The position numbers were made by a program, and so were the translations under genes. Below the pieces are notes generated by a model that had not been told where the DNA came from, searched no databases, and saw only the letters and a program-made list of their open reading frames with translations. From positions 2,970,001 through 3,002,000 of the forward strand of contig NZ_CP074694.1 in NCBI RefSeq assembly GCF_018398935.1: a stretch of 32,000 nt of DNA, written 5' to 3'. Numbering within the stretch: the stretch's first letter is position 1; each line of letters opens with the position of its first letter. Of the stretch, positions 2,183 through 32,000 are shown piece after piece. Origin of the DNA: Telmatocola sphagniphila (GTDB lineage: Bacteria > Planctomycetota > Planctomycetia > Gemmatales > Gemmataceae).

Positions 2183-3334
2183 TTAACCCGCCTTATGTCG
2201 AGCTATCCCTTGTTGCGAATAGCCATAACGGTCGATCACTTCTTTCCAGTGAACCCCGATATCGTGGGCATCTTCGGGATGGAGCTTGTACTGGTTGGTG
2301 GAATAGGAGGCGTTCTGCTGGAGGTAGGTTTTCAAACGCGGGACCAGATTTTCGAATCCATCGAGAGACAGGGTATCATAGATTTTCCGCATCTGTTCAA
2401 TCGGGCTGGCGATCAGTTCCTCGTAGCGCAGTTCGTGATATTGTCCACTTGGGATGAGCGACTTGGTCTCATCGAGCCGTTTGTAGAGATGAATAAATCG
2501 TTTGAAAACCCGCTCTTTCAGTCCAGGGTTGCAGGGAGTTTGAAAGCCGTGCTGGCGGCTGATCGTGGTCCAGAGATGCATAGTCGACGGAAATACATCA
2601 TAGGGGTTGCGAACGATGTGCACGAATTTCGCCTTGGGAAACATCTCTAGTAGCGTAGGAATCCGACAGCTGTGGGCGGGAGATTTTAAGACAAGTCGGC
2701 GAGAGTCGCGGAGCGATATAGTCTTCAGAAAATTTAAGAGGGCGGCTTTCCAGTGGGTCCGTTGCCGCGGCGTCAGATTCGTGAGATCGTATGCTTCGGG
2801 ATCGATTTCCTCGTTATTGGGAAAAGCAATCTGAAGGTAAGGCGAAGGTTGGCCCATCATGCAGAGGGCAAACTCGTCCTCCTGCGGCCGGTCCCAGCTG
2901 ACGGCCATCTGGTCCATGGGCCGTATATCGCCGATCATCCATTTGAACCACCTCTTCATAATACTGCCCGTGAGCAGGAAGTGGTTGGGATCCATGCACT
3001 GGTGGGTGGTCGGGAAGTTGTGCTGCGGATCGAGAATCATGAACTCGTGCAGCAGTGTGGTGCCGGTTCGCCAGTGGCCGATTATGAAAATCGGGTCTTC
3101 CCGGAGCCGGGTGTTCTTAATGGCCTGACCGTAGATCAGGTTTTGCAGAATTTTGAAAACGGAGTGCCCGATACTGACGGGGGTGAGTACCCCGACCATG
3201 TGTCGGTAGCCATTGTCAAACTGAAAGCGTCCTTGCAGCATCAACCGGAGCCAGGCCCACGCGTCGCACCCCAGCCAGAATCGAGGGGTAACCAGATCGC
3301 GTTGTGGCTTCCGGGCTTTGCCGTCATCGCTCAT
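2183..3334 (-). CDS. Sulfotransferase family protein (PAPS-dependent type)
   Basis: PAPS-binding loop motif IIGHWRTGTTLLHEFM, followed by LVLKSPAHSCRIPTLLEMFP and FVHIVRNPYDV (3'-phosphate-binding region). The ORF is open to 3481. I prefer the ATG at 3334 (MSDDGK...) because GGAG lies about 10 nt upstream; the start is uncertain. Confidence 0.85.
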   Translation of the reverse strand: MSDDGKARKPQRDLVTPRFWLGCDAWAWLRLMLQGRFQFDNGYRHMVGVLTPVSIGHSVFKILQNLIYGQAIKNTRLREDPIFIIGHWRTGTTLLHEFMILDPQHNFPTTHQCMDPNHFLLTGSIMKRWFKWMIGDIRPMDQMAVSWDRPQEDEFALCMMGQPSPYLQIAFPNNEEIDPEAYDLTNLTPRQRTHWKAALLNFLKTISLRDSRRLVLKSPAHSCRIPTLLEMFPKAKFVHIVRNPYDVFPSTMHLWTTISRQHGFQTPCNPGLKERVFKRFIHLYKRLDETKSLIPSGQYHELRYEELIASPIEQMRKIYDTLSLDGFENLVPRLKTYLQQNASYSTNQYKLHPEDAHDIGVHWKEVIDRYGYSQQGIARHKAG

Positions 3335-3540
3335 TGAAATAGGTCTCCAGACAGAAAGAGTTTGTATTTCTGCCGTTGGGAATGTCTTCATTCTTACTAA
3401 CTTTCTTTCCTTCCAAACAAATTCCATACCCAAAATTCTGCTAATTCCAGGAAAAGCGAGACGCCCCTTGCCCTGCTTCATAGAATCTAATTACTTGATT
3501 GAAGTTGGACGCGAATCCTTCCGAATATCAATACATAGAT

Positions 3541-3615
3541 CGCGGCGTGGAGCAGCACGGTTAGCTCGCCAGGCTCATAACCTGGAGGTCACAGGTTCAA
3601 ATCCTGTCGCCGCAA
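3541..3615 (+). tRNA. Initiator tRNA-fMet (anticodon CAT), no encoded CCA
   Basis: Hand-folded cloverleaf: acceptor CGCGGCG/CGCCGCA with a C1xA72 mismatch, D-stem GAGC/GCTC (A11:U24), anticodon arm CCAGG-CTCATAA-CCTGG, T-arm ACAGG-TTCAAAT-CCTGT, discriminator A. It is very close to the E. coli tRNA-fMet sequence pattern. Confidence 0.93.
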
Positions 3616-3626
3616 TTCCGCTAGTA

Positions 3627-3691: not shown

Positions 3692-3991
3692 ATGGCTGCC
3701 ATGACCTCCGTTTCCTCCTGGCGAACATTTCGTAACAGCCGACGAGAAGCCTGCTTCGTTTTGGCCGTGTGGCTCGCCGCCCTGCTTTGGACCTTGATCT
3801 ACTGTTCCCAGCACGCATACCAATCTCAACCGATTTTATCCAGATCAGAGCTGATCTTCGGAGTACCTAAATGGGTATTCTGGGGGATTGCGGCACCCGC
3901 TCTCGCATGTTCGGGAATCACTTTGCTCTACGGACTTTTTGGCATTCAGGACGACTTTCTGGGCGACGAACCAGAGGATACTCCGGAATGA
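3692..3991 (+). CDS. Small two-TM membrane protein (DUF997/YhdT-like) coupled to the symporter
   Basis: About 99 aa from the ATG at 3692 (track ORF begins at an upstream TTG, 3665). It has two hydrophobic helices (ACFVLAVWLAALLWTLIY, WVFWGIAAPALACSGITLLYGLF). Its TGA stop overlaps the symporter ATG (ATGA at 3988-3991), matching the yhdT-panF type arrangement. Confidence 0.6.
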   Translation: MAAMTSVSSWRTFRNSRREACFVLAVWLAALLWTLIYCSQHAYQSQPILSRSELIFGVPKWVFWGIAAPALACSGITLLYGLFGIQDDFLGDEPEDTPE

Positions 3992-5604
3992 TCTCAGCCC
4001 TTACAACCGAAAGCTGGCTCGTTCTTACAGCTTTTGCGGGCTATCTCCTGGGCGTAATCTTCCTCGGAATATGGTCGCATCGGCTCGTCAAAAAAGGCAA
4101 CTTCGTCAAAAACTATTTCGTCGGCGGCCGAAAGCTGGGCGCCTGGGTTCTCGCGCTGTCGGTAGCGGGCACGGCAATTAGCGGCGGGACATTCACGGGC
4201 TTTCCGGCCCTGATCTATACCAACGGCTGGGTCATGGCTCTCTGGATCGCCAGCTACATGGTCGTGCCCCTGACCGCCATGGCACTGATGGGAAAACGGA
4301 TCAATCAAGTCGCCCGAGTTTCGGGCTCAGTGACCGTGCCGGATGTCTTCCGGGATCGCTTCGACAGTCCCGCACTGGGTCTGACTTCCACGTTGCTGCT
4401 TTTTGGATTCCTCATTTCCAACATGGTCGCTCAGTTCAAATCGGGGGGACTGGTTCTGAAGACGGCTCTCGGCTTGCCGAAAGTGGCTGTGGAACTTCCA
4501 CTGCTGGGAATCTTTGAGGATCGCGCCTATCTCTTAGGCCTGGCGATTTTCGCAACCACTGTTGTGGCCTACACCAGTTTCGGTGGGTTCTGGGCCGTGA
4601 CCTGGACGGACGTTCTGGAAGGATTCGTCAAGATCATCGGAGTGTCGCTTTTAGCTTTCCTGGCAATCCGATCTGTGCAGGATGTGACTCTGGAGAATGG
4701 CGAGACGCTGACGGGTTTAGCGGCCGCCACGAAGCGACTGGAGATGCAGAATCCGGAATTGGTCTCGGCTCCGGGCCCGAATAACTTTCTGCCTCTGTCG
4801 CTCGCTTTTTCCTTTTTCCTCATGTGGTCGCTTTCAACGCCCGGCCAGCCTAGCGGCATGGTACGGCTGATGTCTTTCAAGGATTCGCAAAGTCTGCGGA
4901 AAGCCATGATCGTGGTTTGCGGTTATTACGCCGTCACCTATTCTTCGCTGGTCATTATTTTCATCTGCTCGCGGGCGATCTATCCAACCGAATTTCTGAC
5001 CAATGCCGACAGTGTCATGCCGGAGATGGCGCGCCGACTGGCGCCGCATCCGCTGATTGCGGGTCTACTACTCGCTTCGCCCTACGCGGCGGTGATGTCG
5101 GCTGTCGCGGCCTTTCTCCTGATGATTTCCTCGAGCCTGGTTCGCGACATTTATCAAAGAACGATCGACCCGGCGGTGCCCGATAAAGTGGTGAAGCGAC
5201 TCAGCTACACAATGACAGCTCTGGTGGGTGTTGGCGTGATGATAGCCGCGATGCGCCCGCCCGATTTTCTTCAGTATCTCATAGTGTTTGCCGGCAGCGG
5301 CCAGAGCAGTTCCTTTCTCTTCCCCATGCTCCTGAGTCTTTATTGGAAGCGGGCCACGAAACAAGGCGTACTTGGCGGCATGCTGGGAGGCGCCTGCACC
5401 ATAATGGCCCTCTATTTAACTGGTTGGATGTTTAACGACAAAACGATCTACAAAGCGATCGAACCGTATTATCTGTTCGGCTTCGATCCCCTCGTCTGGG
5501 GCTTCAGCGTTTCAGCCATTACCTCTATCGGTATCAGCCTGCTCACTCGTCCCGACCCGAGGCTGGTCGAGAAGTATTTCCCGCAAAGAACCAGCGATAG
5601 CTAA
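3988..5604 (+). CDS. Sodium:solute symporter family (SSF) transporter, PanF-like
   Basis: Multi-TM protein with the SSF N-terminus MISALTTESWLVLTAFAGYLLGVIFLGIWS..YFVGGRKLGAWVLALSVAGTAISGGTFTGFPALIY. I prefer the start at ATG 3988 (ATGA overlap with the upstream small gene) over the track start at 3871, which would overlap that gene. Confidence 0.9.
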   Translation: MISALTTESWLVLTAFAGYLLGVIFLGIWSHRLVKKGNFVKNYFVGGRKLGAWVLALSVAGTAISGGTFTGFPALIYTNGWVMALWIASYMVVPLTAMALMGKRINQVARVSGSVTVPDVFRDRFDSPALGLTSTLLLFGFLISNMVAQFKSGGLVLKTALGLPKVAVELPLLGIFEDRAYLLGLAIFATTVVAYTSFGGFWAVTWTDVLEGFVKIIGVSLLAFLAIRSVQDVTLENGETLTGLAAATKRLEMQNPELVSAPGPNNFLPLSLAFSFFLMWSLSTPGQPSGMVRLMSFKDSQSLRKAMIVVCGYYAVTYSSLVIIFICSRAIYPTEFLTNADSVMPEMARRLAPHPLIAGLLLASPYAAVMSAVAAFLLMISSSLVRDIYQRTIDPAVPDKVVKRLSYTMTALVGVGVMIAAMRPPDFLQYLIVFAGSGQSSSFLFPMLLSLYWKRATKQGVLGGMLGGACTIMALYLTGWMFNDKTIYKAIEPYYLFGFDPLVWGFSVSAITSIGISLLTRPDPRLVEKYFPQRTSDS

Positions 5605-7236: not shown

Positions 7237-8829
7237 TTAATTCTTATTCGGGTCCGCGTCTTTCTTTTCCGCTTCATCCTTCTTGGCATCGTCCTTTTTG
7301 CTCTTGGGTTCCGGTGCCTTTTTCTCAGGAGGTTTGGGCATTTCCTTCTTGGGTTCCGGAACAACGAAAGTTTCGACGACTGGTTTCGGCGGTTCTTTTT
7401 TAACTCGAACGGGAACGCGAATGTCTTTATCTTCCAGACAGACAATTTTTCCATTGCTGTCCGCGAGGATCAAGCGATCATCCTGATCATTGGAGTAAGT
7501 AATGTTAAGCGTACCGAGACTGATGCTCGAGAGGTCGAGCCCGCGAAGGCGATCCACCACGTGCAGTCGATTCTTGCTATCGGCGGCATAAACATACTTG
7601 GAGTTGACGGCTAGAACTTCATCCCCTGGCACTTTGGCTAAGTTCATTCGCACGCTACCACCAGCTGGCCAGACAGTCTTGCCGGTTCTGCGATCCAACC
7701 GCCGCAACCCGGCATTCCCACCAACCACATAGATTGAATCTTCCGTCACATAAGGAGTCTTAAGAACTTCTCCCCCCGCAGGTTGCCTCCACATTAAAGC
7801 CCCGAGCTTGATGTCGTAAGCATACAAGTAGGTGTCGGCAGTAGGGATGTAAATTTCGAACTGGTCCAATCCCAGCCCGGCGGTGATTTCCGCATCGGTT
7901 TTGAAATTAAACTTGCTATCCGGACTGGTGTTCGGGGTCATGTAGATGTCCCCAACCTGGCTGGGAAGGACGATGGTATTCACCGCTTGCACGCTAATCA
8001 CAGGGAAGGTAATCCGATAGCGAACATTCCGGGTCCAGATCTTTTCGGGTTCTGTACGATCCTTGTTCTCGGAGAGATCCGACAGAGTACTAAGGTTATT
8101 CACCATTACGATAGAGGGGGTGGCATTACCACCTTCCAGGGTATAGGGTGGATAAACCTTATGGGTGACCGACAGCGACGGGCTACCGTCAATGCCTGGA
8201 ATTTTGAAAGGAGGTCGCAGACTTTGTAGCACCGAAATTGAAGGTGTTCTATTCCCCGAAGAGGCCAATTGTTCGAAAACTCCGACAGAGAGGGTTTCTT
8301 GAGTGCCGCGGGCGGCCTCTTGCGGGATATTGCGAATCGCAGTATGGCTCTTCAGATCAACGAACTTATACGCCACGACTTTATTGGTGATCAGCGGTAT
8401 GAATACCCGGTCGCTATCGGCCGTAGGCCCGGACGAAGGAATTGCTCCTAGTTCCACGTTAAAGAGCACTCGGCCGGTTGCGCGATCGAGAAAGATCAGG
8501 TTTGTGGAGTTAATGAAGAAGACGATTTTTTCGTTAACGGCCACCGGATAAATCGCTCGCCGTGGCAACGGAGGATCATAACGCCATACCTGGGATCCCG
8601 ATCGGACATCCAATTTATATAAGATGCCCGAGGCATTCTGTACGAACAGATCGTTATCGAAAAGTTGAATCTTCTGAAGGCTGTCCGATCGATTTTCGAT
8701 GGGAACGAAGGCCGTCCAATTTTGGCGGAGGTGCAAACGATCCCAATCCGCTGTTGTAGGCGTCGACTGGGCATTGACCGAAGAGAGTATGAGACAACTG
8801 GCGATAGCGCTGAGAATTAGCCGTTGCAT
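7237..8829 (-). CDS. Secreted PQQ-like (BamB-like) beta-propeller repeat protein with Lys/Pro/Glu-rich C-terminal tail
   Basis: Signal peptide MQRLILSAIASCLILSSVNAQ from the ATG at 8829 (track ORF begins at TTG 8862). Repeated blades: ILYKLDVRSGSQVWRY, LIFLDRATGRVLF, LYAYDIKLGALMWRQ, LRRLDRRTGKTVWP, LHVVDRLRG. The tail is KKEPPKPVV..PEPKKEMPKPPEKKAPEPKSKKDDAKKDEAEKKD. Confidence 0.8.
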   Translation of the reverse strand: MQRLILSAIASCLILSSVNAQSTPTTADWDRLHLRQNWTAFVPIENRSDSLQKIQLFDNDLFVQNASGILYKLDVRSGSQVWRYDPPLPRRAIYPVAVNEKIVFFINSTNLIFLDRATGRVLFNVELGAIPSSGPTADSDRVFIPLITNKVVAYKFVDLKSHTAIRNIPQEAARGTQETLSVGVFEQLASSGNRTPSISVLQSLRPPFKIPGIDGSPSLSVTHKVYPPYTLEGGNATPSIVMVNNLSTLSDLSENKDRTEPEKIWTRNVRYRITFPVISVQAVNTIVLPSQVGDIYMTPNTSPDSKFNFKTDAEITAGLGLDQFEIYIPTADTYLYAYDIKLGALMWRQPAGGEVLKTPYVTEDSIYVVGGNAGLRRLDRRTGKTVWPAGGSVRMNLAKVPGDEVLAVNSKYVYAADSKNRLHVVDRLRGLDLSSISLGTLNITYSNDQDDRLILADSNGKIVCLEDKDIRVPVRVKKEPPKPVVETFVVPEPKKEMPKPPEKKAPEPKSKKDDAKKDEAEKKDADPNKN

Positions 8830-18568: not shown

Positions 18569-19054
18569 TTATACCCGAGGGATCAAATGATCTAGTTCGA
18601 GAACATGCTTCCGACAGGCCGGCAAGAACTTCGATTGCAGCAGCGTTTTACAAGACTGACTGATTTCCGAATTTTCAATGGCATCCTCGTAGTCGCCGAT
18701 ACCAAGTTCTTCGCCTCGCTTCAAGGCCGCCAGAACCGTTTTTGGTCCGATGACCTTAGCCGTTTCGGTAACCGCGGAAGTAAAACTGCCCCAAGCCCCT
18801 GCACTGTCCTCAGGCTTCCCACCGAACTGCTGGATGCGCTGCTGCAACGAAGTCACCGCCTGACTGTGCTCGGCGCGAATGCGGCTCAATTCCTTCTGAA
18901 TGGCGAGGTCTTCAAACTTACTGATCGCCTGCTCATAAGCGGCCACTGCGGACAATTCCCCGCGCAGCAGCTTATTCATGCGATCCGTGTCACACTTCTG
19001 CTGATCGGTATCAATTGAAGAATCCAGGCCGGATGTCGTGATGTTCGTGGTCAT
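18569..19054 (-). CDS. DUF2383 / PA2169-like ferritin-like four-helix-bundle protein
   Basis: 161 aa, all-helical. LLRGELSAVAAYEQAISKF and GIGDYEDAIEN resemble the paired motifs of this family. The start ATG overlaps the upstream ORF's stop (ATGA at 19051-19054). Confidence 0.7.
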   Translation of the reverse strand: MTTNITTSGLDSSIDTDQQKCDTDRMNKLLRGELSAVAAYEQAISKFEDLAIQKELSRIRAEHSQAVTSLQQRIQQFGGKPEDSAGAWGSFTSAVTETAKVIGPKTVLAALKRGEELGIGDYEDAIENSEISQSCKTLLQSKFLPACRKHVLELDHLIPRV

Positions 19055-19236
19055 CTCGTTGCTTCCTCGAAAAAAATATCGTCTCGCAATTCAAGACGTA
19101 TTCCTATCAAGAGTGCAACGTCGATGCCAAAGAAGTATGCAATACCTGCATTCGAACTAGTTAAGGATTTTGACTTAAGAGTCAAACGGGAGAGGAGTTC
19201 AGAACCAAATTTAATAAGTGCTAACCGGACTTCCAT
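19051..19236 (-). CDS. Small ORF (61 aa), possibly a divergent HTH protein, translationally coupled to the DUF2383 gene
   Basis: ATG start and ATGA stop/start overlap with the downstream gene. FGSELLSRL...SLTSSNAGIAYFFGIDVALLIGIRLE loosely resembles an XRE-type HTH. No obvious Shine-Dalgarno. Confidence 0.4.
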   Translation of the reverse strand: MEVRLALIKFGSELLSRLTLKSKSLTSSNAGIAYFFGIDVALLIGIRLELRDDIFFEEATR

Positions 19237-21999: not shown

Positions 22000-24675
22000 T
22001 TAAATCTGAACCGAAGGGATAGTCACTTCGAAGGTCGCTCCTTGCCCCGGCTGGCTTTTCGCGGAGATCGATCCACGATGCCTTTCAACTATTTTTCGAC
22101 AGATCGCCAGCCCCACACCGGTCCCTTCATATTCATCTCGTCCATGCAGCCTTTGAAATACTTCAAAGATTCGGTCCAAATACTTTTCGTCAAAGCCTAT
22201 GCCGTTATCACTTATATCAACCCTATAGCAGGCGGGTTTAACCGAATCATTATTATCAGCACTATTTGTGCCAATCAACTGAGATGCAATGTTAACTTCA
22301 GGAGGAACACCGACTTTATGAAACTTCAAAGCATTTCCGATCAGATTTTGAAAGAGTTGTCGCATTTGTAAGGCATCTGCTTGAATTTTTGGCAACTTGC
22401 CCACGATGACTTGGCCGCCGGTCTGTAGCAAGCGGCCTTCCAAATCGGAGAGAACTTCCTGGACTAGGAGGTTCAAATCGACCATCTCGAAATTTCCCGG
22501 TTTCGTGGTAACTCGGGAGAAGGCCAGCAGGTCATCAATCAGTCGACGCATACGGGCCGAGGAATCCAGCATCCGCTCGATATAGTTTTGCCCTTCCTCA
22601 CCCAGTGTTGACTGGTATTTCTGAGTGAGTCGATTCCCAAACGCCTGAATTTTCCGAAGGGGTTCCTGGAGATCGTGGGAAGCCACATACGCAAACTTTT
22701 CCAATTCCTCGTTACTTCGCCGCAGTTCGCGTGCCTGATTCTTTTCCCGCTCCTCGGCTCGGCTTCTTTCCTCAACCTCCTCCTGAAGGGATCTATTCAA
22801 TTTCAAGAGTTCCGAAGTTCTCAACTCAACCAGACGCTCTAAGACTTCAGATTGCAGTTTCTGTTCGTGAATGTCCGTCATAGTTCCCACCCACTGAGAA
22901 ATCTCACCAGTGGTTTCTCGAAGTGCCACCGCATTCGTGAGCATCCAGCGGTAATTGGGATCACTCTTGCCGCGCAGGCGAAACTCATTGACGTAATGGT
23001 CCGAGTTGGCCTGACGGGCTTTCTCCCAAGCATCATGCATGCCTTGAAGATCCTCCGGATGCACCAACTCTCTCCAGCCGAGATTTCGCGCCAGTTCCAC
23101 GGTCACACCGGTGTGATCGATCCAGCGGCGGTTATAATAAGTGACCTGACCGCTCGCGTCAGTTGCCCAAACCATCTGAGGAATCGCCTCGGTCAGCAGG
23201 CGGAACCGTTCCAGACTTTCGCGCAATTCCACTTCAATTTTGCGATGCTCGGTAACATCCCGAGAGACGCAGACATAACGAAATGGCGTTCCGTCGGGCC
23301 CGGGAATCGGAGCAATTTGAACGTCCCAGTACTTCGGTGTTCCTTTCATCGTCGGCCGAGAACCACTGAAGCGACCAATGGACCCGCTGGTGGCGAGATC
23401 GAACGCTTTCTTCACGTCTTGCTGCTGCTCGGGAGTCCACATACTTTCCCACTGCCGACCTTTGATCTGCTCGAAGTCATCGATCTGCATGAGCTTGCGA
23501 CCCGGCGAATTCATCTCTTGAATTCGGCCTTCCCGATCGAGAATTTTGATGCAATCCGGACTGTTCTCCAGAACGCTTCGGAAAAAGGCTTCACTATCCC
23601 GAATCTGTTGTTCGGTATGTAATTGTTCCGTGATATCCAAAGCAATGACGCCCAGCCCAATTTTCTTCTGCAGATTATCGCGAACGGGAAAAATGCTCAA
23701 ACGCCAGACACGCTTCTTTCCGGATACTTCCTGTTCGATGTGCAAAATCCGATCGGGAATTCGTTCGCCGGTGGCCAGGGAGTGCTTGAAATCCTGCAGA
23801 ATTTCTTCGGGAAAATCCGATCGGAGTTCTCGCGGCGTCTTTCCCCAGTGCGCGGCCAGAGGCAGGCGGTTCATTTCTGCAATTTGGTGATTCGCTCTCA
23901 CGTACCGAAGGTTAGGATCGAAGAAGGAAATTCCCACCGGAGCGTTCTGGAGAAATGCATCGAGTTGTGCAAGAGTCTCCGCCATATCCTGACGGGAACT
24001 ATCGAGATGCTGATTCGTCTCGCGTAATTTTCGCTCCACAGTCTTGCGATGTTTCAACTCGCTATGAACTAATCGATAAGCCCCGCCGACGAGAAACAGA
24101 ATCAGAAAACCGCCGACGATATTGGTAATGGCGGCTACCAGATAGCTGTTTTCAGCCGTATTAATTCGCTGCTGGTACAAATCCTCCTCGACTCGATCCA
24201 TCGCGGAAATTTGTTTCTGCACATCGTTCATCAGGCTAAAACCGCTACCCGATTTTATAACTTTTTCTGCCTCGACCTCCCCAGAGGCCTTTCGAACGGC
24301 TATGGTCTTGCGCAGCAGATTTAATTTGTCCTGAATAAGCTCCCCAAGTTGGTTAGCGCGCTCTACCTGCTCCGGGTTGTCTTGGGTTAAATTCTTAAGT
24401 ACAGTTAACTCCAGCTCGAGCATCTTCGCGGCGCGCTCAAAAGATTCTAAATATCTATCCTGTTCGGTAATTTGATAACCTCGCTGGCTCGATTCCGCAT
24501 CTTTTACGAGCGATAGAACATCGACAAGTTCCTTCTGGACATCGCGAGTGTGGGCCACGAGTTGATCGTGTTCGCGAAGGGTCTGCATATTGGAACGAGA
24601 CGCCAGAAAGTTCAGAATCACCGCCACGAAGGCCAACAACCATACTACAAGCATTTTCTTGGACGAATTACCCAT
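22000..24675 (-). CDS. Membrane sensor histidine kinase: CHASE3 periplasmic domain, about three PAS domains, HisKA, HATPase_c
   Basis: TM1 MLVVWLLAFVAVILNFL. CHASE3-like region (HTRDVQKELVDVLSLVKDAESSQRGYQITEQDRYLESF). TM2 LVAAITNIVGGFLILFLVGGAY. PAS cores (GISFFDPNLRYVRAN, DCIKILDREGRIQEMN, MVWATDASGQVTYYNRRW). H-box SHDLQEPLRKI. ATP-lid DNGIGF, GTGVGLAIC. Confidence 0.9.
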   Translation of the reverse strand: MGNSSKKMLVVWLLAFVAVILNFLASRSNMQTLREHDQLVAHTRDVQKELVDVLSLVKDAESSQRGYQITEQDRYLESFERAAKMLELELTVLKNLTQDNPEQVERANQLGELIQDKLNLLRKTIAVRKASGEVEAEKVIKSGSGFSLMNDVQKQISAMDRVEEDLYQQRINTAENSYLVAAITNIVGGFLILFLVGGAYRLVHSELKHRKTVERKLRETNQHLDSSRQDMAETLAQLDAFLQNAPVGISFFDPNLRYVRANHQIAEMNRLPLAAHWGKTPRELRSDFPEEILQDFKHSLATGERIPDRILHIEQEVSGKKRVWRLSIFPVRDNLQKKIGLGVIALDITEQLHTEQQIRDSEAFFRSVLENSPDCIKILDREGRIQEMNSPGRKLMQIDDFEQIKGRQWESMWTPEQQQDVKKAFDLATSGSIGRFSGSRPTMKGTPKYWDVQIAPIPGPDGTPFRYVCVSRDVTEHRKIEVELRESLERFRLLTEAIPQMVWATDASGQVTYYNRRWIDHTGVTVELARNLGWRELVHPEDLQGMHDAWEKARQANSDHYVNEFRLRGKSDPNYRWMLTNAVALRETTGEISQWVGTMTDIHEQKLQSEVLERLVELRTSELLKLNRSLQEEVEERSRAEEREKNQARELRRSNEELEKFAYVASHDLQEPLRKIQAFGNRLTQKYQSTLGEEGQNYIERMLDSSARMRRLIDDLLAFSRVTTKPGNFEMVDLNLLVQEVLSDLEGRLLQTGGQVIVGKLPKIQADALQMRQLFQNLIGNALKFHKVGVPPEVNIASQLIGTNSADNNDSVKPACYRVDISDNGIGFDEKYLDRIFEVFQRLHGRDEYEGTGVGLAICRKIVERHRGSISAKSQPGQGATFEVTIPSVQI

Positions 24676-24802: not shown

Positions 24803-26251
24803 ATGACGACCGAAGTTCCTGAACCGATAACCGGCCCAAAAGAGCCTGCGATCTCTCAGCGCGTACTAGTTGTGGAAGATCTCGAGGATACAAGAGTATC
24901 GCAACAGCAATTATTATGCCTATCGCTGGGTCTGGAAGTCGATACCGCCGAGGATGGCCAGGCAGCACTGAGTATGCTGTTGGAGCGCAATTACAGTCTG
25001 GTGATAACCGATCTTCGCATGCCGAAACTCAACGGCATGAAATTGATCGAAGAAATCAATCAGCGCAAATTGCCTGTTACTGTCATTGTGACGACCGGAC
25101 ATGGGGGGGTGAATGATGCCGTAAACGCCATGCGAATGGGCGCTTACGATTTTCTCGTAAAACCCCCGAACCCGCAGCATCTTTGCATGCTGGTGCAAAG
25201 GGCACTTCGGGAAAGATCCCTACAAGATGAAGTTGCATCACTTCGTCAGGAACTCGGGCAAAGGCATTCGTTTCAGAATGTCATTTCGAAAAGTCCGCGG
25301 ATGCACGATGTTTTCGAATTGATCGGCCAAATTGCCACGACCTCCTCTACCGTTCTAGTGATTGGCGAAACCGGTAGCGGGAAAGAGCAGATCGCCCGAG
25401 CGATTCATCAAGCCTCGGCCGAGCAGAGACCAGGGGCCTTTGTGGCAATTAATTGCGCGGCACTGCCCGAAACTCTTCTGGAAAGCGAACTATTCGGACA
25501 CGAAAAAGGAGCCTTCACAGGGGCTACCACTCAGCGCAAAGGCCGTTTTGAACAGGCTCATAAGGGTACTATATTCCTGGATGAAATCGGCGATGTTCCT
25601 CTGGCGATGCAAGTAAAACTCCTGCGGGTGCTCCAAGAGAGAAAATTCGAGCGCATCGGTGGAACTGAAACCGTCGAAATTGATGTTCGAGTTGTCGCAG
25701 CGACGCACCAAGCGTTGGAAAAGCTTGTAAAAGACGGCAAGTTCCGCGAAGATTTATTTTATCGTCTGAACGTTATTCGCATCGACGTACCCCCATTGCG
25801 GGACCGGCCCGAAGATATTCCAGTTCTAGCGAGCTTCTTTGCGCAGAAATTTACTCGCACCGGCCAGACACCTCCCAAGCTCAGCCCCGAAGCCTTACAG
25901 GTACTACAAGGTTATTCCTGGCCCGGTAATGTGCGTCAGCTGGAAAATGCCTTGGAAAGAGCCTGTATCACGGCCCGAGATGGCCTCATTTTGCCCAAAC
26001 ATTTGCCTTCGGATATCAGCGGATTGATATCCTCTTCGAAACAGGCAATGCAAGTCGATCTGTCACGAAGTTTACCGGAGCAGTTGTCCGAATTGGTTGC
26101 CAGTTTTGAGAAACGCTACCTGCGCAAAGCATTGAGGCGAACACGCGGCCATGTTGGCAAGACGGCCAAGATCAGTGGATTATCGCGAAGAAGTGTTACT
26201 GAAAAAATCGGACACTATGCGATCGACAAAGCAGAATTTAAAAAGGACTGA
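24803..26251 (+). CDS. Sigma-54-dependent response regulator (NtrC-family enhancer-binding protein)
   Basis: REC (VLVVEDLEDT..LVITDLRMPKLNG..VIVTTGHG). AAA+ sigma-54 interaction domain (GETGSGKE Walker A, GAFTGA loop as EKGAFTGA, IFLDEIGD Walker B, RVVAATH). C-terminal Fis-type HTH (GHVGKTAKISGLSRRSVTEKI). Confidence 0.93.
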   Translation: MTTEVPEPITGPKEPAISQRVLVVEDLEDTRVSQQQLLCLSLGLEVDTAEDGQAALSMLLERNYSLVITDLRMPKLNGMKLIEEINQRKLPVTVIVTTGHGGVNDAVNAMRMGAYDFLVKPPNPQHLCMLVQRALRERSLQDEVASLRQELGQRHSFQNVISKSPRMHDVFELIGQIATTSSTVLVIGETGSGKEQIARAIHQASAEQRPGAFVAINCAALPETLLESELFGHEKGAFTGATTQRKGRFEQAHKGTIFLDEIGDVPLAMQVKLLRVLQERKFERIGGTETVEIDVRVVAATHQALEKLVKDGKFREDLFYRLNVIRIDVPPLRDRPEDIPVLASFFAQKFTRTGQTPPKLSPEALQVLQGYSWPGNVRQLENALERACITARDGLILPKHLPSDISGLISSSKQAMQVDLSRSLPEQLSELVASFEKRYLRKALRRTRGHVGKTAKISGLSRRSVTEKIGHYAIDKAEFKKD

Positions 26252-26262
26252 AGGATATTGAA

Positions 26263-26289
26263 GATGCGGGACTTTTTCAGTCTCGCATC
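26263..26289. terminator. Stem-loop between two convergent stops (candidate bidirectional terminator)
   Basis: GATGCGGGACT-TTTTC-AGTCTCGCATC: 11-bp stem with one G-U wobble. It lies in the centre of the 57-nt gap between the stops at 26251 and 26309. Confidence 0.5.
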
Positions 26290-26308
26290 CAGAATTGTCT
26301 GAAATCCA

Positions 26309-26632
26309 CTAGCGCCGCCAACCACGGCCACCGCTGCGGAATCCACCCCGGTAGCCGGAGCGATAAAAATTATTATACCCCCAACGGTAACTGGGCCTAT
26401 AACCCCAGTTATAATATCCACCGTTTCCTATTCCGATGGAAAAATTGGGGCCACTATAGTAGAGTCCGGGATAACTACTATAAGAATAGTAGTTATAGGG
26501 CTGATAATAGGGCGTAGAGTAGGAATATCCGTAGGTTCCAGGATCATACGTAGTAACAATCTGGGCTTTGGCCTGAGAGCCGGTCAATAGCAGCACAGCG
26601 ATTCCGGCGACTAAAACATTTTGAATCCTCAT
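26309..26632 (-). CDS. Small secreted Tyr/Gly/Ser/Asn-rich low-complexity protein with Arg/Gly-rich C-terminus
   Basis: ATG at 26632 preceded by AAGGAG 7 nt upstream (track start is an upstream TTG, 26650). Signal peptide MRIQNVLVAGIAVLLLTGSQAKA. The 84-aa mature part has 20 Tyr, 16 Gly and 8 Arg (all in the last 29 aa), and no Lys, Glu or Cys. A sigma-54 promoter match lies upstream and a hairpin downstream. Confidence 0.75.
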   Translation of the reverse strand: MRIQNVLVAGIAVLLLTGSQAKAQIVTTYDPGTYGYSYSTPYYQPYNYYSYSSYPGLYYSGPNFSIGIGNGGYYNWGYRPSYRWGYNNFYRSGYRGGFRSGGRGWRR

Positions 26633-26678
26633 GGTGATTCTCCTTATCAAAAGCCATTTGATACAGAAAGATTAAACC

Positions 26679-26693
26679 GCAATCCGAATGCCA
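26679..26693 (-). promoter_or_regulatory. Sigma-54 (-24/-12) promoter match facing the Tyr/Gly-rich gene
   Basis: Minus strand reads TGGCAT-TCGGA-TTGC, with exact consensus spacing (TGGCAC-N5-TTGC). The -12 element lies about 47 nt upstream of the ATG at 26632. Confidence 0.7.
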
Positions 26694-26787
26694 ACGATCA
26701 TACTGGTTAAATTTTTCTGGTTCTTCCGAGACACTTTTGACATGCCTGGTGCGCGAAGGTGAGAATTCGAGTTCTCTTTGTTCGTGC

Positions 26788-26810
26788 AATCACTGACTAA
26801 ATGAGTGATT
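26788..26810. promoter_or_regulatory. Perfect inverted repeat between the two sigma-54 promoters (candidate activator/UAS site)
   Basis: AATCACT-N9-AGTGATT (7-bp arms). It lies about 95 bp upstream of the minus-strand -24 element and about 20 bp upstream of the plus-strand -24 element. Confidence 0.45.
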
Positions 26811-26830: not shown

Positions 26831-26845
26831 CGGCACATAAGTTGC
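26831..26845 (+). promoter_or_regulatory. Sigma-54 (-24/-12) promoter match facing the cyclic glucan synthase gene
   Basis: CGGCAC-ATAAG-TTGC with exact GG-N10-GC spacing. The -12 element is about 44 nt upstream of the ATG at 26889, which has GAGG 7 nt upstream. Confidence 0.65.
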
Positions 26846-26888
26846 CTGTTTGCGATGATTCTAGCTCGAAATTTATTGAGGTTTATTT

Positions 26889-29800
26889 ATGGTGGAATCG
26901 GTTCAGGTCCCTATTGCCGAGAAACCATCCAATCTAGTTGACTATCTCTCCGATTACACCCACCCCTTGCGTTTGGATGCCGCGGGCCATGAGAGTTTGT
27001 TGCAGAAAATCCGCGAATTGGCTGTCGGTTCGATTGATTCGATTGCACCGAGTTCTCGTTCCGTACTGATACGCTTTCGAGGCAACTGCGCCCGACTTAA
27101 AGAGGTGCACCGGGAGCTGGCCCTTAGAGCGGCCTTAGGGGAACAGATTCCTAGTGAATCCGAATGGTTGCTCGACAACTATTACATCATTCAGGAAGTC
27201 GTTCGAGAAATTCGCAATGATCTTCCCAAGGGTTACTATCGAGAGTTGCCCGCCCTACTCAGTGGACCTTTTGCAAGACTCCCTCGGATCTGTCCGTTTG
27301 CCTTTTCGCTGCTGGCTTATACCGATTCGGCTTTTACGGAGTCCGACATTACGGAAGCCGTGACGGAATACCAACGTGTCGCTCCGCTATCCATCGGTGA
27401 AATCTGGGCGATCCCGACGATGTTGAGGCTCGCTCTACTGGAGAATTTGAGGCGAATTGCCGATCAGATTGTTTCGACTATCAAGGAGCACCGCTCCGCG
27501 ACCGCAGCGGTATTACTCGCGAACAAGGGGAGCCAGCCGCTTCTGCCTACCCAGCCCACGGACGCTTTTGCTGTGGCCTTCTGGGAAGGATTGCGCGACG
27601 GCGATAACACGAGTGCAGTCCGAAGCGACTTAGTTCACGATTGGTTATCGGAACACATAGCCGATCCCGGAAAGATTGAACATCGCGAATACTGCCGACA
27701 GGCGGCAAATCAAGTTTCCATCGGGAACGCCATCACTAGTCTTCGCTTGCTCGGCGTCATTGACTGGATGAACTTTTTCGAATCGGTCAGCTTAGTTGAG
27801 GCCGAGCTTCGCAGAGACCCGGCGGGAATCTACGGCCGACAGGATTTTGGAACGAGAGATCGTTGTCGCCAAGCAGTGGAGAAACTTTCCCGACAATCCA
27901 AAATTTCCGAATTGGACATTGTTAAGCGGGCCAATCACCAGGCCGAACTTTCGAAATCGACCTCTCCCCTTCCCAACGCCAGCTTTTTAATCGGAGAGCA
28001 TCGTCAGGTTTTTGCGCAAAGCCTCAAGCCGATTCCCTTCTGGAAAATGAGCAGGCAGGATTGGCTCCTGGAACATCCCAATTTATTCTTTTTTGGGCTA
28101 CTCGGTTCGCTGACTGCACTTCTGGTAATTAGTGCGATTGCCCTCTCCGGAGCAAGTTCTATAAGTCTCATCGTTCTGGTGGCATTGGCTGCCTTACTTC
28201 CCGCGAGCGAACTGGCTGTCGGCTTTTCCAATTTTTTCATTACTCGTCAGCTTGCCCCTCGAGTGCTACCCAAGCTCGATTTCAAAAATGGAATTGCGAA
28301 CGGATGCGACACCTTCGTGGTGATCCCGACTCTGCTGACCAGACCGGAACAAGCCGCCGTGCTTTGCGAACGGTTGGAGTTACACTATTTATCCAACTCC
28401 GATCCCAAGCTTCGGTTTGCATTGCTTACAGACTTCCCGGATGCAGATGCAGAGCAAACGCCGAGCGACGATCCAAGTCTCCAGACGGCCTTGGAAGGCA
28501 TTCAGAAATTGAATGAACTGCACGCGGAGGAAAACTCTCCTCGCTTTTTTCTCTTTCACCGTCGAAGGCTTTGGAATCCCTCGCAAAACTGCTGGATGGG
28601 GTGGGAACGCAAACGCGGTAAACTCGAAGAATTCAACAGTTTGCTTCGCGGTGATAAGAACACCACCTACTCGATTCAATCTTCTGTCATCGATAAACTG
28701 CCGCCGATTCGCTATGTCCTTACACTCGATGGCGACACCGTTCTGCCTCGAGACGCCGCGCGGCAGATGATCGCTACATTGGCCCATCCACTTAATCAGC
28801 CGATATTATCGGAAGATAAACGCCGGGTGATTTCCGGTTTTGGACTATTACAACCCCGAGTGAGTTTCCTTTATAAAACCGGATTTCAGTCGTGGTTTGC
28901 AAGCCTTTTCGCAGGCTCTGCCGGGATCGATCCTTATTCCGCCGCGGTGTCCGATACGTACATGGATCTTTTTGCCAAGGGAACTTTCACAGGCAAAGGG
29001 CTGTACGATATCGATGCTTTTCAAGCGACCTCGGGACAAGCTTTCCCCGAAAATGCCATCTTAAGTCACGATCTGATCGAGTCAAATTATACGCGCTGTG
29101 CCCTGGCCACCGATGTCGAAGTCTTCGATGAGTTCCCTTCGCGTTATAACTCGTACGCTCGGCGCGAACATCGATGGATCCGAGGCGACTGGCAATTGCT
29201 GCCCTGGTTGAGTCGCCGAGTGCCAACTTCTTCCGGCGAAGCGATCAATATTCTGCCGGCTTTGGAACGCTGGAAGATCATCGATAATTTGCGCCGGAGT
29301 CTCGTACCGGCCAGTCTCGTTCTGCTCTTGCTTCTGGCCGCGACCATTCTGCCCGGACAATTTCTTGGCTGGTGTGGCTTTGTTATGATCCTATTCGCGT
29401 GGCCAACGATCTTTTATCTGCTCGAAACTGCGTTGTTAAAATTGCATGGCAAATCTTCGAGGAGTTTGATTGCCCGCTTACGGGCCGATCTTCCTTCAAC
29501 TCTCGGACAATCGGCCCTGCAATTCGCGTTTCTACCCAATCAAGCCTGGGTGGCCATTCATGCAATTGGTACGACGCTTTACCGTCTGAATTTTTCGCGA
29601 AAGAAATTACTGGAATGGGAGACCGCCGCAGCGGCAGAAGTCCGTTTGGGAACTCAATTCAAGGCCTTCCTCCACTCCATGTTTCCCGCCGTGATAATAT
29701 CTCTGGTCTGTTTGCTTCTTGTGGGAATATCCCACTTGAGCAATTTGATTTATTTTGCTCCGATCGGCCTGCTCTGGCTAATGTCACCCCTGATCGCCTG

Positions 29801-32000
29801 GCGAATCAGCCAACCGCGACAATTTTTGGAAAGAAGCTTAACCGAAGAAGAACGATTGGAACTCCGGCTGGTTTGTCGAAAGACCTGGAATTTCTTCGAA
29901 ACTTTTGTCGGGGATGCCGATAATCACTTGCCTCCGGACAACTACCAGGAAGATCCTTTGTCGGCAGTGGCCCACCGCACTTCCCCTACGAATATCGGTT
30001 TATATCTCCTTTCCGTTCTGGCTGCGCACGATCTGGGATACCTCACCCTGCCTCAGATGCTGGAGCGATTACGCAAAACATTTGCATCGATTCAAAAATT
30101 GGAAAAGTATCGCGGCCATCTGTTGAATTGGTACGAAACCACAACGCTAGAGACTTTACAGCCTGGCTACGTCTCCACGGTCGACAGCGGGAATTTATTA
30201 GCCTGTCTGCTGACGTTGAAGCAGGGCCTTTTAGAAAAAATGCGAACCCCGCCGCAGTCAACTCCCGAGGGACTACGAGATACCTGCGAACTGTTTCTGA
30301 AAGCCCTTTCAGAGCCAGCGCATAACGATCCCAAATTGAAACAGCAGGCTGAGGAGTTGCGAAAAGCACTTTTAACGAAATTTAAACTCACCGAGATTCA
30401 ATCTTCACTCGTTTCACTGCAATCGAAATCTCTTTCTAGTCATCCTGAGGCGGAAGTTTGGCTTTCTCGACTCTCCCAACAAGTGCAACAACAGTTGCTT
30501 TTAGATCAACAGCCTACCGAGCAAAGTGTCGGGTGCCCCAAGGAAATGGCTGAGATCGCTGAAGAGGCCGAGCGATTAGCAAAGGGCATGGATTTTCGAT
30601 TTCTTTATAATGCCGAGCGGGATCTCTTCAGCATTGGCTATAACTGCAACACGCAAAGATTAGACACTTCACATTACGATTTGCTCGCTTCAGAATCCTG
30701 CATCGCCAGTTTTCTGGCGGTCGCTCGCGGTCAAGTCCCCAGAAAGCACTGGTTTCAATTAGGTAGGCTTTCAATGTATGCCGCGGGAGAGACCGGCTTG
30801 ATCTCCTGGGGTGGTACGATGTTCGAGTATCTGATGCCCCGGATCCTTCTACCGGTACCGCAGGGAGTATTGCTCGATCGGGCACAACGCACGGCCGTCG
30901 CCCGACAGATCGAGTTTGGTGCGGAAGAGAAACTACCCTGGGGTGTTTCCGAATCCGGATTTTATCTGCTTGATGCCGGTAAAATCTATCAGTACCAATC
31001 GTTCGGGGTTCCTGGTTTGGGTTTAAAAAGGGGCCTGGAAAAAGATCGGGTCGTGGCTCCCTATGCGACTCTGATGGCTGTGGACATCGATCCCCAGAAA
31101 GCGATCGCCAACCTGAAGGAGCTGAAAAAGTGGGGCGGCGAGGGCAAATTCGGTTACTACGAAGCATTGGATTTTTCTCCCCAGCGCATCCCGGAGGGGA
31201 GTAAATGTCGTGTCGTGAAATCCTATATGGCTCATCATCAGGGTATGGGATTGCTGGCCATTCTGAATCGGTTGACCCAGGGAGCGCTCCGTCGCCGATT
31301 CCAGGCGGAACCGGTCGTCCGCTCCGCGGAATTACTACTGCAGGAGCGGATTCCCAACGATTTTCCGATCTTCGAGCCGGAGGTTGCCACCGTCGAGGAC
31401 CAGCAACTTTCGACCTTCAACGCTCCTTCGCGACGGCGAATCACCACTCCGGATACTCCCGTTCCACGCACGCATCTTTTATCCAACGGCCTTTACACCG
31501 TAATGATCACCAACTCCGGCGCGGGTTTCAGCCGCTATGGCGATATAGATATCACTTTCTTCCGCGCCGATCGGACGACCGACGACTGCGGACAGGTTAT
31601 CTATTTGCGTGACCGCCGTTCCGGAAAAATCTGGTCCGTGGGCTATCAGCCGATCCGCAAAAAAACGTCCCATTATGAAGTCATCTTTTCGCTCGATAAG
31701 GCTGATATCCGCCAGTTTGATGACGGCATTGAGACGCATCTGGAAATCACCGTTCCCCCCGATCAGAACGTCGAGATTCGGCGACTATCGATAGCCAATC
31801 AATCGGCCCGGCAAGTCCGGTTGGATGCTACCAGCTATGCCGAGATTGTGCTCAATGATCATCGCGCTGACATGGCTCACCCGGTCTTTGGAAAGCTATT
31901 TCTGGAAACGGAATGGGTCCCGCAATACTGTGCCCTTCTATGCCAACGCCGGCCCCGTACTCCCAACCAGAAGACGGGCTGGGCCATGCACTTGCTGGTA
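26889..32000 (+). CDS. Cyclic beta-1,2-glucan synthase (Cgs/NdvB/ChvB-like; GT84 domain plus start of the GH94-type region), 5' 1704 codons; continues beyond the window
   Basis: Not in the supplied ORF track because it has no stop in the window. I translated it by hand: MVESVQVPIAEKP... stays open to nt 32000. TM segments (LFFFGLLGSLTALLVISAIAL, LIVLVALAALLPASELAV). GT domain with DXD (YVLTLDGDTVLPRDA), GKGLYDIDAF, and the signature REHRWIRGDWQLLPW. Later motifs: HRTSPTNIGLYLLS, STVDSGNL, WGGTMFEYLMP, YMAHHQGM. Confidence 0.88.
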   Translation, partial: MVESVQVPIAEKPSNLVDYLSDYTHPLRLDAAGHESLLQKIRELAVGSIDSIAPSSRSVLIRFRGNCARLKEVHRELALRAALGEQIPSESEWLLDNYYIIQEVVREIRNDLPKGYYRELPALLSGPFARLPRICPFAFSLLAYTDSAFTESDITEAVTEYQRVAPLSIGEIWAIPTMLRLALLENLRRIADQIVSTIKEHRSATAAVLLANKGSQPLLPTQPTDAFAVAFWEGLRDGDNTSAVRSDLVHDWLSEHIADPGKIEHREYCRQAANQVSIGNAITSLRLLGVIDWMNFFESVSLVEAELRRDPAGIYGRQDFGTRDRCRQAVEKLSRQSKISELDIVKRANHQAELSKSTSPLPNASFLIGEHRQVFAQSLKPIPFWKMSRQDWLLEHPNLFFFGLLGSLTALLVISAIALSGASSISLIVLVALAALLPASELAVGFSNFFITRQLAPRVLPKLDFKNGIANGCDTFVVIPTLLTRPEQAAVLCERLELHYLSNSDPKLRFALLTDFPDADAEQTPSDDPSLQTALEGIQKLNELHAEENSPRFFLFHRRRLWNPSQNCWMGWERKRGKLEEFNSLLRGDKNTTYSIQSSVIDKLPPIRYVLTLDGDTVLPRDAARQMIATLAHPLNQPILSEDKRRVISGFGLLQPRVSFLYKTGFQSWFASLFAGSAGIDPYSAAVSDTYMDLFAKGTFTGKGLYDIDAFQATSGQAFPENAILSHDLIESNYTRCALATDVEVFDEFPSRYNSYARREHRWIRGDWQLLPWLSRRVPTSSGEAINILPALERWKIIDNLRRSLVPASLVLLLLLAATILPGQFLGWCGFVMILFAWPTIFYLLETALLKLHGKSSRSLIARLRADLPSTLGQSALQFAFLPNQAWVAIHAIGTTLYRLNFSRKKLLEWETAAAAEVRLGTQFKAFLHSMFPAVIISLVCLLLVGISHLSNLIYFAPIGLLWLMSPLIAWRISQPRQFLERSLTEEERLELRLVCRKTWNFFETFVGDADNHLPPDNYQEDPLSAVAHRTSPTNIGLYLLSVLAAHDLGYLTLPQMLERLRKTFASIQKLEKYRGHLLNWYETTTLETLQPGYVSTVDSGNLLACLLTLKQGLLEKMRTPPQSTPEGLRDTCELFLKALSEPAHNDPKLKQQAEELRKALLTKFKLTEIQSSLVSLQSKSLSSHPEAEVWLSRLSQQVQQQLLLDQQPTEQSVGCPKEMAEIAEEAERLAKGMDFRFLYNAERDLFSIGYNCNTQRLDTSHYDLLASESCIASFLAVARGQVPRKHWFQLGRLSMYAAGETGLISWGGTMFEYLMPRILLPVPQGVLLDRAQRTAVARQIEFGAEEKLPWGVSESGFYLLDAGKIYQYQSFGVPGLGLKRGLEKDRVVAPYATLMAVDIDPQKAIANLKELKKWGGEGKFGYYEALDFSPQRIPEGSKCRVVKSYMAHHQGMGLLAILNRLTQGALRRRFQAEPVVRSAELLLQERIPNDFPIFEPEVATVEDQQLSTFNAPSRRRITTPDTPVPRTHLLSNGLYTVMITNSGAGFSRYGDIDITFFRADRTTDDCGQVIYLRDRRSGKIWSVGYQPIRKKTSHYEVIFSLDKADIRQFDDGIETHLEITVPPDQNVEIRRLSIANQSARQVRLDATSYAEIVLNDHRADMAHPVFGKLFLETEWVPQYCALLCQRRPRTPNQKTGWAMHLLV

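Follow-up and report, generated by a model that had tools for sequence, protein, structure and literature searches.

Sulfur globule proteins SgpA, SgpB and SgpC of purple sulfur bacteria are small, Sec-exported, Gly/Tyr-rich repetitive proteins that coat a periplasmic inclusion, and they fall in a compositional class that also takes in the low-complexity and RGG regions of FUS, the high-Gly/Tyr keratin-associated proteins and the glycine-rich proteins of plant cell walls. To our knowledge, exported bacterial proteins with the sticker-spacer grammar of FUS, mussel glue or tick glue are almost undescribed. Here we analyze a 32,000-nucleotide stretch of the Telmatocola sphagniphila genome (the window), in which a small gene encodes a Tyr-rich precursor of 107 residues, very probably exported, and lies divergent from a cyclic β-1,2-glucan synthase gene of the cgs/ndvB/chvB type (cgs). 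By analogy, the product would join the already known class of secreted Tyr/Gly-rich sticker-spacer structural or adhesive proteins; as judged from the sequences compared below, what is new is that homologues were not found in database searches, that the gene has a genomic partnership with cgs, and that two carriers are known.

The Sgp proteins are, as an analogy, the best bacterial precedent, as the window protein is likewise small, predicted to be Sec-exported, Gly/Tyr-rich and repetitive. No sequence, family or Pfam match connects the two, however, and the host is an aerobic peat heterotroph without sulfur-globule biology, in which the partner gene encodes a glucan synthase. With the FUS family, the window protein shares Tyr stickers set in a Gly/Ser/Asn/Pro background and followed by an Arg/Gly region, and the SYSGYS and SYSSYGQS motifs of FUS resemble its YGYSYS and SYSSYPG. 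In contrast, FUS is intracellular and joined to RNA-binding domains, whereas the window protein carries an export signal and has about twice the Tyr density. A first-pass annotation of the window, made from sequence alone, had described a [G/S]Y[G/S]-plus-RGG grammar with an RGG-type tail. The Tyr/Gly plus Arg composition and the Arg-rich tail hold, but there are only three strict [GS]Y[GS] motifs (9 of the 20 Tyr residues follow Gly or Ser, a compositional analogy only), and the tail, with one RGG and two RG, is better described as a series of x-G-Y-R repeats. FET-type RGG boxes accompanied by RNA-binding domains were not found, Pfam giving neither an RRM nor a zinc finger.

For a comparison of composition with mussel Mfp-3 (UniProt Q9GUX8), the sequence of the latter was taken from PMC9287526. 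The composition cosine is 0.87 for the whole mature protein and 0.94 for its C-terminal half, and 0.69 for CsgA, which served as a control. Both Mfp-3 and the window protein have a signal peptide and a very small mature part that is rich in Tyr, Gly, Arg, Asn and Trp and almost free of acidic residues, and both are disordered, the latter by prediction. Mfp-3 is nevertheless an animal protein without homology to the window protein, uses Lys besides Arg, and acts as an external adhesive primer that requires conversion of Tyr to 3,4-dihydroxyphenylalanine (DOPA), whereas neither a tyrosinase nor a surface-export context is seen around the window gene. The tick protein GRP77 is a secreted, Gly-rich, disordered cement protein of 77 residues, the coacervation and liquid-to-gel ageing of which are driven by periodically placed Arg and aromatic residues (PMC11794139). 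The window protein is also secreted, as far as its signal peptide indicates, about 80 residues long and predicted to be disordered, with AlphaFold placing a helix only in the signal peptide. It differs in having 31% aromatic residues and a single acidic residue, as GRP77 has ~9% aromatics and contains both Glu and Lys, and it is therefore probably far less soluble and more solid-like.

In general terms, the window protein has the make-up of a sticker-spacer intrinsically disordered protein (IDP), namely a chain predicted to be disordered, aromatic and Arg stickers, and polar or Gly spacers. The AlphaFold2 disorder and the Mfp-3 cosine make the earlier analogy to Tyr/Gly-plus-Arg phase-separating and adhesive proteins a fair one. 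Gln/Asn-ladder repeats and adjacent secretion or nucleator genes, as in curli- or Fap-type amyloid systems, were not found. A literature search on bacterial Tyr-rich periplasmic disordered proteins, sulfur globule sequences and YXWGXW proteins likewise returned no direct precedent.

The small gene and its product

The reading frame was re-derived with its ATG and stop codon exactly where the first-pass annotation had placed it (Table 1). An alternative TTG start is present at 26650; the ATG at 26632 is favored because a Shine-Dalgarno (SD) sequence, AAGGAGAA, stands 7 nt ahead of it. By direct reading, the N-terminus has the features of a Sec-type signal peptide, with the layout MRIQN / VLVAGIAVLLLTG / SQAKA: a single basic residue (Arg) in the n-region, an h-region of 13 residues, Gly at -6 and Ala at both -3 and -1, with cleavage predicted between AKA and Gln. 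The protein is thus very probably exported through Sec. The signal region contains no Cys, ruling out a lipoprotein, and no twin-Arg motif, ruling out a substrate of the twin-arginine translocation pathway. A PEP-CTERM or other sorting tag was ruled out as the C-terminus lacks a hydrophobic segment, and a ribosomally synthesized and post-translationally modified peptide precursor was ruled out as no modifying enzymes were found nearby.

With cleavage as predicted, recounting confirmed the mature length of 84 residues and the counts of Tyr, Gly and Arg given earlier. The mature protein comprises 20 Tyr, 16 Gly, 10 Ser, 8 Arg, 6 Pro, 6 Asn, 4 Thr, 3 Trp, 3 Phe, 3 Ile and 2 Gln, with Val, Asp and Leu once each and no Glu, Lys, Cys, His, Met or Ala, so that aromatic residues account for 26 of 84 positions (31%) and the net charge is +7. 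The charge is unevenly placed, as all eight Arg fall within mature positions 56-84, the last 29 residues. The N-terminal half alternates in a YxYxY manner (e.g., YGYSYS and YNYYSYSSY), and a central IGIGNG hinge separates it from a cationic C-terminal half consisting of about nine tetrapeptides with the consensus x-G-Y-R (GYYN WGYR PSYR WGYN NFYR SGYR GGFR SGGR GWRR). Tyr recurs at every fourth residue of this tail, at positions 51, 55, 59, 63, 67 and 71. Tandem Repeats Finder detected no DNA-level tandem repeat beneath the tetrapeptides, so it is the protein that retains the periodicity, and recent slippage was ruled out as its source.

The AlphaFold2 model, for which a two-sequence alignment was a weak input, has a predicted local distance difference test (pLDDT) score of 45, and its sole helix is the signal peptide, consistent with an intrinsically disordered mature protein. 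Homology searches gave no relatives. A search of 5.8 billion clustered proteins returned only the protein itself, a profile built from the window protein and its counterpart in another genome (described below) returned only both inputs, and HMMER, run in full against 1.84 billion representatives, found besides the protein itself only P0002 and P0003, both of them repeat artefacts of eukaryote-like character. In Pfam-A, hmmscan of the precursor at E ≤ 1 gave only two sub-threshold chance matches in the signal-peptide region, and the mature protein matched nothing at E ≤ 10. No match was found in NCBIfam, among PDB sequences at E ≤ 10, or among plasmids by tblastn, and no Rfam family matched the locus. 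Kinship with the Pfam YXWGXW repeat family, which had been raised earlier, is therefore not borne out: members of this family are likewise small, exported and rich in Tyr, Trp, Gly and Arg, and the window protein fits the motif in part, but the Pfam HMM search gave no match even at E ≤ 10, and the sixth residue of its two motifs, YNWGYR and YRWGYN, is Arg or Asn rather than Trp.

Several observations make it very probable that the open reading frame (ORF) is a real gene. It was called on Logan contig SRR14506984_107 by a gene finder, it takes up the greater part of a 637-bp gap that is otherwise empty and is bordered by two well-supported genes, and 20 TAY codons, each one transversion away from a stop codon, are kept in an open frame. 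Alternatively, it could be a chance ORF in this intergenic region, miscalled by one gene finder. Such a reading gains from the lack of homologues in database searches, from synonymous codon usage, which is uninformative at this ORF length, and from the absence of the protein from the NCBI-derived protein set for the genome, in which exact look-ups of three start variants found nothing. It is very improbable in our view, given a 120-codon stop-free stretch despite 20 stop-adjacent TAY codons, a strong and correctly spaced SD followed by a textbook signal peptide, and a same-slot counterpart with an unambiguous coding signature (see below). The neighboring regulator, which matches a Telmatocola sphagniphila protein at 100% identity, is present in the NCBI-derived set, whereas the small protein appears only in the Logan calls. 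The reference genome thus probably lacks an annotation of the small gene, which would be an example of how small low-complexity genes can escape reference annotation.

The slot beside cgs in related genomes

To place the gene in context, 93 loci encoding Cgs relatives (80 genomic and 13 metagenomic; 987 kb) were scanned in six frames, which gave 10,003 ORFs spanning 50 or more codons from stop to stop. The maximum number of Tyr residues per 40 amino acids is seven or fewer in every ORF except one, which has 12. This single outlier, in a Gemmataceae metagenome-assembled genome (MAG; locus L005), lies in the same position beside cgs as the window ORF. An SD, AAGGAG, precedes its start at a distance similar to that in the window, and a signal peptide, MKLTVLGAALALGLSLGSPTRADA, is followed by Gln at the predicted cut after ADA. 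Of the 94 residues of the mature part, 18 are Tyr and none is Asp, Glu, Lys, His, Cys or Met; Arg is limited to the C-terminal half, a central LGVGRG takes the place of IGIGNG, and the chain terminates in SRRFWR where the window protein ends in GRGWRR. The GC content at third codon positions (GC3) of the L005 ORF is 0.92, compared with 0.58-0.59 at positions 1 and 2 in a genome of 73% GC, and is close to the 0.96 of the adjacent cgs, a clear coding signature. The absence of conserved counterparts in syntenic loci had been named in the first-pass annotation as a ground for giving up the gene, and the L005 ORF is such a counterpart; with the SD, the signal peptide and the gene-caller prediction, it sustains the claim of a real gene.

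Aligned globally, the two mature proteins score modestly better than shuffles that preserve their composition (z 2.2; 51/2000). Alike in architecture and location, the window and L005 genes may have arisen either by rapid divergence or by convergence, and the best explanation of the sequence data would be a lineage-restricted, fast-evolving gene. A scan of JGI metagenomes with the Cgs N-terminus gave a best match of 38% identity and no Tyr-rich ORF.

Small gene and cgs are separated by a 257-bp divergent region. The full-length product of the latter has 2823 residues with GT2-type, glucoamylase-like and GH94 domains, an architecture that confirms the earlier identification of a cyclic glucan synthase. 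Two sigma-54-type -24/-12 elements, TGGCATtcggaTTGCG for the small gene and CGGCACataagTTGCC for cgs, point outward from this region, 137 bp apart, each alone having a chance probability of ~0.05. The promoter match, the SD and the downstream hairpin of the first-pass annotation were each located (Table 1). The cgs element is kept 24-79 nt upstream of cgs in at least ten related loci from Gemmatales and other planctomycetes, with no mismatch in L002, L003 and L008, one in L006, L007, L013, L016 and L017, and two in L020 and L005, the last reading CGGCACacccgTTGCC. This conservation points to RpoN dependence of cgs in this clade.

The back-to-back layout recurs in L002, L003 and L020, where cgs is paired with other small stress proteins, and in L017 a gene for a DUF2171 stress protein lies upstream of cgs. 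These proteins of other Gemmatales (YtxH/LEA-like, CsbD/DUF2171 and KGG-type), which occupy the same slot with the same promoter layout, are small and probably disordered like the window protein, but they lack a signal peptide and are amphipathic and rich in Lys, Ala and Glu, whereas the window protein is predicted to be exported, is aromatic, and has neither Lys nor Glu. From these comparisons, cgs itself looks like a stress gene of the sigma-54-dependent kind in this clade, and the slot divergent from it like one that serves small stress proteins, filled by an exported Tyr-rich protein in Telmatocola and L005. The small gene is physically linked to cgs, and a regulatory link is probable.

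Three further elements were seen in and around the divergent region. A 7-bp AU-rich hairpin (UAUCAAA-5 nt-UUUGAUA; 26645-26663, minus strand) in the predicted 5' untranslated region of the small gene abuts the SD. Two inverted repeats, AATCACT-N9-AGTGATT (26788-26810) and GAGAAT-TCGA-GTTCTC (26757-26772, centered on a GAATTC palindrome), lie between the outward-facing promoters, and both are candidate activator binding sites.

Proposed role and rival explanations

We tentatively favor a role as a self-associating protein of the periplasm or envelope, co-expressed with cyclic β-1,2-glucan under a sigma-54 stress programme, by analogy with the systems described above; in doing so we infer expression, co-regulation, periplasmic location, self-association and glucan interaction. 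The small gene would be transcribed from the sigma-54-type promoter that stands back to back with that of cgs, and its product would be a chain of aromatic stickers (20 Tyr, 3 Trp and 3 Phe) between Gly, Ser, Asn and Pro spacers. In the periplasm, which is large in planctomycetes, or on the envelope, the exported protein would self-associate through Tyr-Tyr (π-π) and Arg-Tyr (cation-π) contacts into a cohesive phase, either a gel or condensate-like. This phase would form beside the simultaneously made cyclic glucan, as an envelope response to low osmolarity, drying or oxidation. Low osmolarity is the classic condition requiring cyclic glucans, the products of ndvB, chvB and cgs. T. sphagniphila is an obligately oligotrophic, aerobic chemoheterotroph of the Gemmataceae that inhabits peat bogs and tolerates <0.1% salt (PMC3327967). 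If self-assembly were true, the low-complexity chemistry of condensates and adhesives would extend to the bacterial periplasm or surface, and the protein would be a candidate biomaterial that is short, cysteine-free and DOPA-independent.

A number of observations, in addition to the missing database entry discussed above, weigh against this proposal. The small-gene element TGGCATtcggaTTGCG has two mismatches, both outside the GG/GC cores, and a match like it is expected with a probability of ~0.05 in a stretch of ~250 nt and a given orientation; no recognizable sigma-54 element was found upstream of the L005 small gene. Orthologues of the NtrC-type regulator encoded next to the small gene, which are 70-83% identical and come from other Gemmataceae, adjoin DUF3185, DUF883 and holin-like stress genes, not cgs. 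Because they flank different genes elsewhere, that the adjacent regulator acts on the two promoters is something we infer, and the tight regulation and control by this regulator suggested in the first-pass annotation are accordingly softened here to a possibility, none of its orthologues elsewhere being beside cgs or a Tyr-rich gene. BLASTP found no significant similarity between the window and L005 proteins (E 0.21), which is why convergence of the two is possible. Only two carriers were found, with ~17 other planctomycete cgs loci lacking the gene, and in a neighbor-joining tree of Cgs N-termini the carriers are not sisters, as the window sequence is basal and that of L005 falls among L002-L004, which lack the gene; this placement calls for either independent gains or losses accompanied by replacements. 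Lastly, a protein with 31% aromatic residues may simply be insoluble.

Some of these observations would fit a real, exported orphan that is functionally unrelated to cgs, a rapidly evolving envelope filler or species-specific surface protein occupying a permissive intergenic slot. The protein is a singleton in every homology search, its distribution is patchy, and unrelated small genes fill the slot in other lineages. We nonetheless regard such an orphan as somewhat unlikely, as the only other extreme Tyr-rich ORF among the 10,003 occupies the identical slot and cgs has back-to-back sigma-54 promoters in other loci as well.

The main rival on function is a surface adhesive or a matrix protein of a holdfast or stalk: having crossed the outer membrane, the protein would serve as a glue like mussel foot protein or tick cement. 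It might harden by oxidation of Tyr to DOPA or dityrosine and might contribute to the Telmatocola stalks, rosettes and dendriform clusters, with the adjacency of cgs being incidental or due to a shared matrix. The similarity to Mfp-3 in composition, size, secretion and richness in Tyr, Gly, Arg, Asn and Trp speaks for this role, and a tick glycine-rich protein shows adhesive ageing (PMC11794139); T. sphagniphila itself forms stalk-like structures, rosettes and dendriform clusters (PMC3327967). However, genes for an outer-membrane export system, a tyrosinase, a laccase or a peroxidase were not seen in the ~50 kb examined, the neighbors are stress genes rather than surface-structure genes, and L005 comes from an uncharacterized MAG and hence provides no link to morphology. 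We regard an adhesive function as unlikely.

The envelope role that we favor can also be extended to a two-component material, in which the sticker protein and cyclic β-1,2-glucan together would make a periplasmic or pericellular gel or adhesive, the pairing of cgs with a small disordered protein under sigma-54 control would be a general planctomycete means of envelope protection, and the window protein would be, among bacteria, the first known equivalent of the glue proteins of mussels and ticks. By analogy this is conceivable, yet we hold it to be decidedly unlikely in this full form. An attractive hypothesis within it is that the side chains of Tyr would either insert into the rings of the glucan or stack on them, and that the envelope or anionic glucan substituents would be bound by the Arg tail. 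The synergy of trehalose with IDPs in desiccation-tolerant animals provides an analogy for pairing cgs with a disordered protein.

That cgs repeatedly occurs with small disordered proteins, behind back-to-back sigma-54 promoters, hints at protein partners of cyclic glucans, in Gemmatales at least, and this idea offers a testable account of envelope protection by cyclic glucans.

It is extremely improbable that the protein is an antimicrobial or bacteriocin-like peptide of the cationic Gly/aromatic/Arg-rich type, akin to the glycine-rich antimicrobial peptides of animals. The net charge, the Arg- and Trp-rich tail, the small size and the secretion would suit such a role, but no immunity, maturation or dedicated export genes were found nearby, Sec export alone would deliver the peptide into the producer's own periplasm, an uncharged Tyr-rich N-terminal half is atypical, and no bacteriocin-type context is seen nearby (no PADLOC scan was made).

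Neighborhood

The neighbors of the two genes, together with the features of the small gene and the comparable loci, are collected in Table 1.

Table 1 Features of the small gene, of its neighborhood and of related loci (window coordinates unless preceded by a locus handle, L).
Feature	Position	Strand	Remarks
Coding sequence of 107-residue precursor	26309-26632	-	ATG at 26632; stop codon 26309-26311 included; 107 codons
Shine-Dalgarno AAGGAGAA	26638-26645	-	Strong; 7-nt spacer to ATG
Predicted Sec-type signal peptide MRIQNVLVAGIAVLLLTGSQAKA	26564-26632	-	Direct sequence reading; cleavage predicted before Gln
N-terminal half, mature residues 1-42	26438-26563	-	13 Tyr; one Asp, otherwise uncharged
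Central IGIGNG hinge	26420-26437	-	Pairs with LGVGRG of L005 protein in alignment
Cationic C-terminal half	26312-26419	-	8 of 8 Arg, 3 of 3 Trp
Sigma-54-type -24/-12 element TGGCATtcggaTTGCG	26678-26693	-	45 nt upstream of small-gene ATG
Sigma-54-type element CGGCACataagTTGCC	26831-26846	+	42 nt upstream of cgs ATG
Cyclic β-1,2-glucan synthase gene (cgs/ndvB/chvB-type), 5' part	26889-32000	+	Divergent neighbor
Hairpin between convergent stops of small gene and regulator gene	26262-26290	-	dG -19.6, z -3.4
NtrC-type sigma-54 enhancer-binding response regulator	24803-26251	+	Convergent neighbor of small gene
CHASE3-PAS histidine kinase	22000-24675	-	Divergent from regulator gene
DUF2383 (ferritin-like stress) gene	18569-19054	-	Same window
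Dps/ferritin gene	L001 663-1151	-	Downstream of cgs, beyond window end
YtxH/apolipoprotein-like gene, 75 residues	L001 350-577	-	Downstream of cgs, beyond window end
Tyr-rich ORF, 118 residues	L005 83-439	-	Gemmataceae MAG; divergent from cgs, ~220 bp upstream
cgs element	L002 1543-1558		
cgs element	L003 4175-4190		
cgs element	L008 1830-1845		
cgs element	L013 5926-5941		
cgs element	L006 4423-4438		
cgs element	L007 1922-1937		
cgs element	L016 4119-4134		
cgs element	L017 5489-5504		
cgs element	L005 605-620		
cgs element	L020 3272-3287		
YtxH/apolipoprotein-like Lys/Ala-rich protein	L002 ~1076-1303	-	Promoter 1362-1377 (-)
YtxH/apolipoprotein-like Lys/Ala-rich protein	L003 ~3706-3942	-	Promoter 3993-4008 (-)
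KGG-type protein	L020 ~2829-3143	-	Promoter 3223-3238 (-)
DUF3185, DUF883, holin_3_6-type (YqjD/YqjE-like) genes	L097 6507-7239, L100 6513-7834, L095 3510-3659		Convergent, after regulator orthologue

With Dps, YtxH-like and DUF2383 genes and a CHASE3 kinase accompanied by an NtrC-type regulator, the locus reads as a stress island. A sigma-54-like element, TGGCATcgacgTTGCA, is present at 19114-19129 (minus strand), ~60 nt upstream of the DUF2383 gene, at a distance of 5.7 kb from the gene for the regulator and ~3 kb beyond that for the kinase, on the far (3') side of the latter; judging from this element, the DUF2383 gene may belong to the same regulon. Among the regulator orthologues, the convergent genes in L100 have a sigma-54-like promoter at 7873-7888 (minus strand). 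The closest orthologue, in L095 (83% identical), is on a contig that stops 150 nt past the regulator gene, and the 15 visible C-terminal residues of the convergent ORF, FGVGMLMGRGMSSRA, resemble a DUF3185-type membrane protein, which other Gemmataceae encode at this place, not a Tyr-rich one. As far as these sequences indicate, only in Telmatocola does the regulator gene stand next to cgs and the Tyr-rich gene.

The hairpin between the convergent stops of the small gene and the regulator gene is a possible bidirectional terminator; it lacks the T-tract of a canonical terminator, and no canonical T-tract terminator was found at the locus. The remaining window is ordinary chromosomal sequence, comprising the 3' end of an NAD-dependent DNA ligase gene and genes for a sulfotransferase, an SSF symporter and an aspartokinase, and a tRNA-Met (CAT) gene is found at 3540-3616 on the plus strand.

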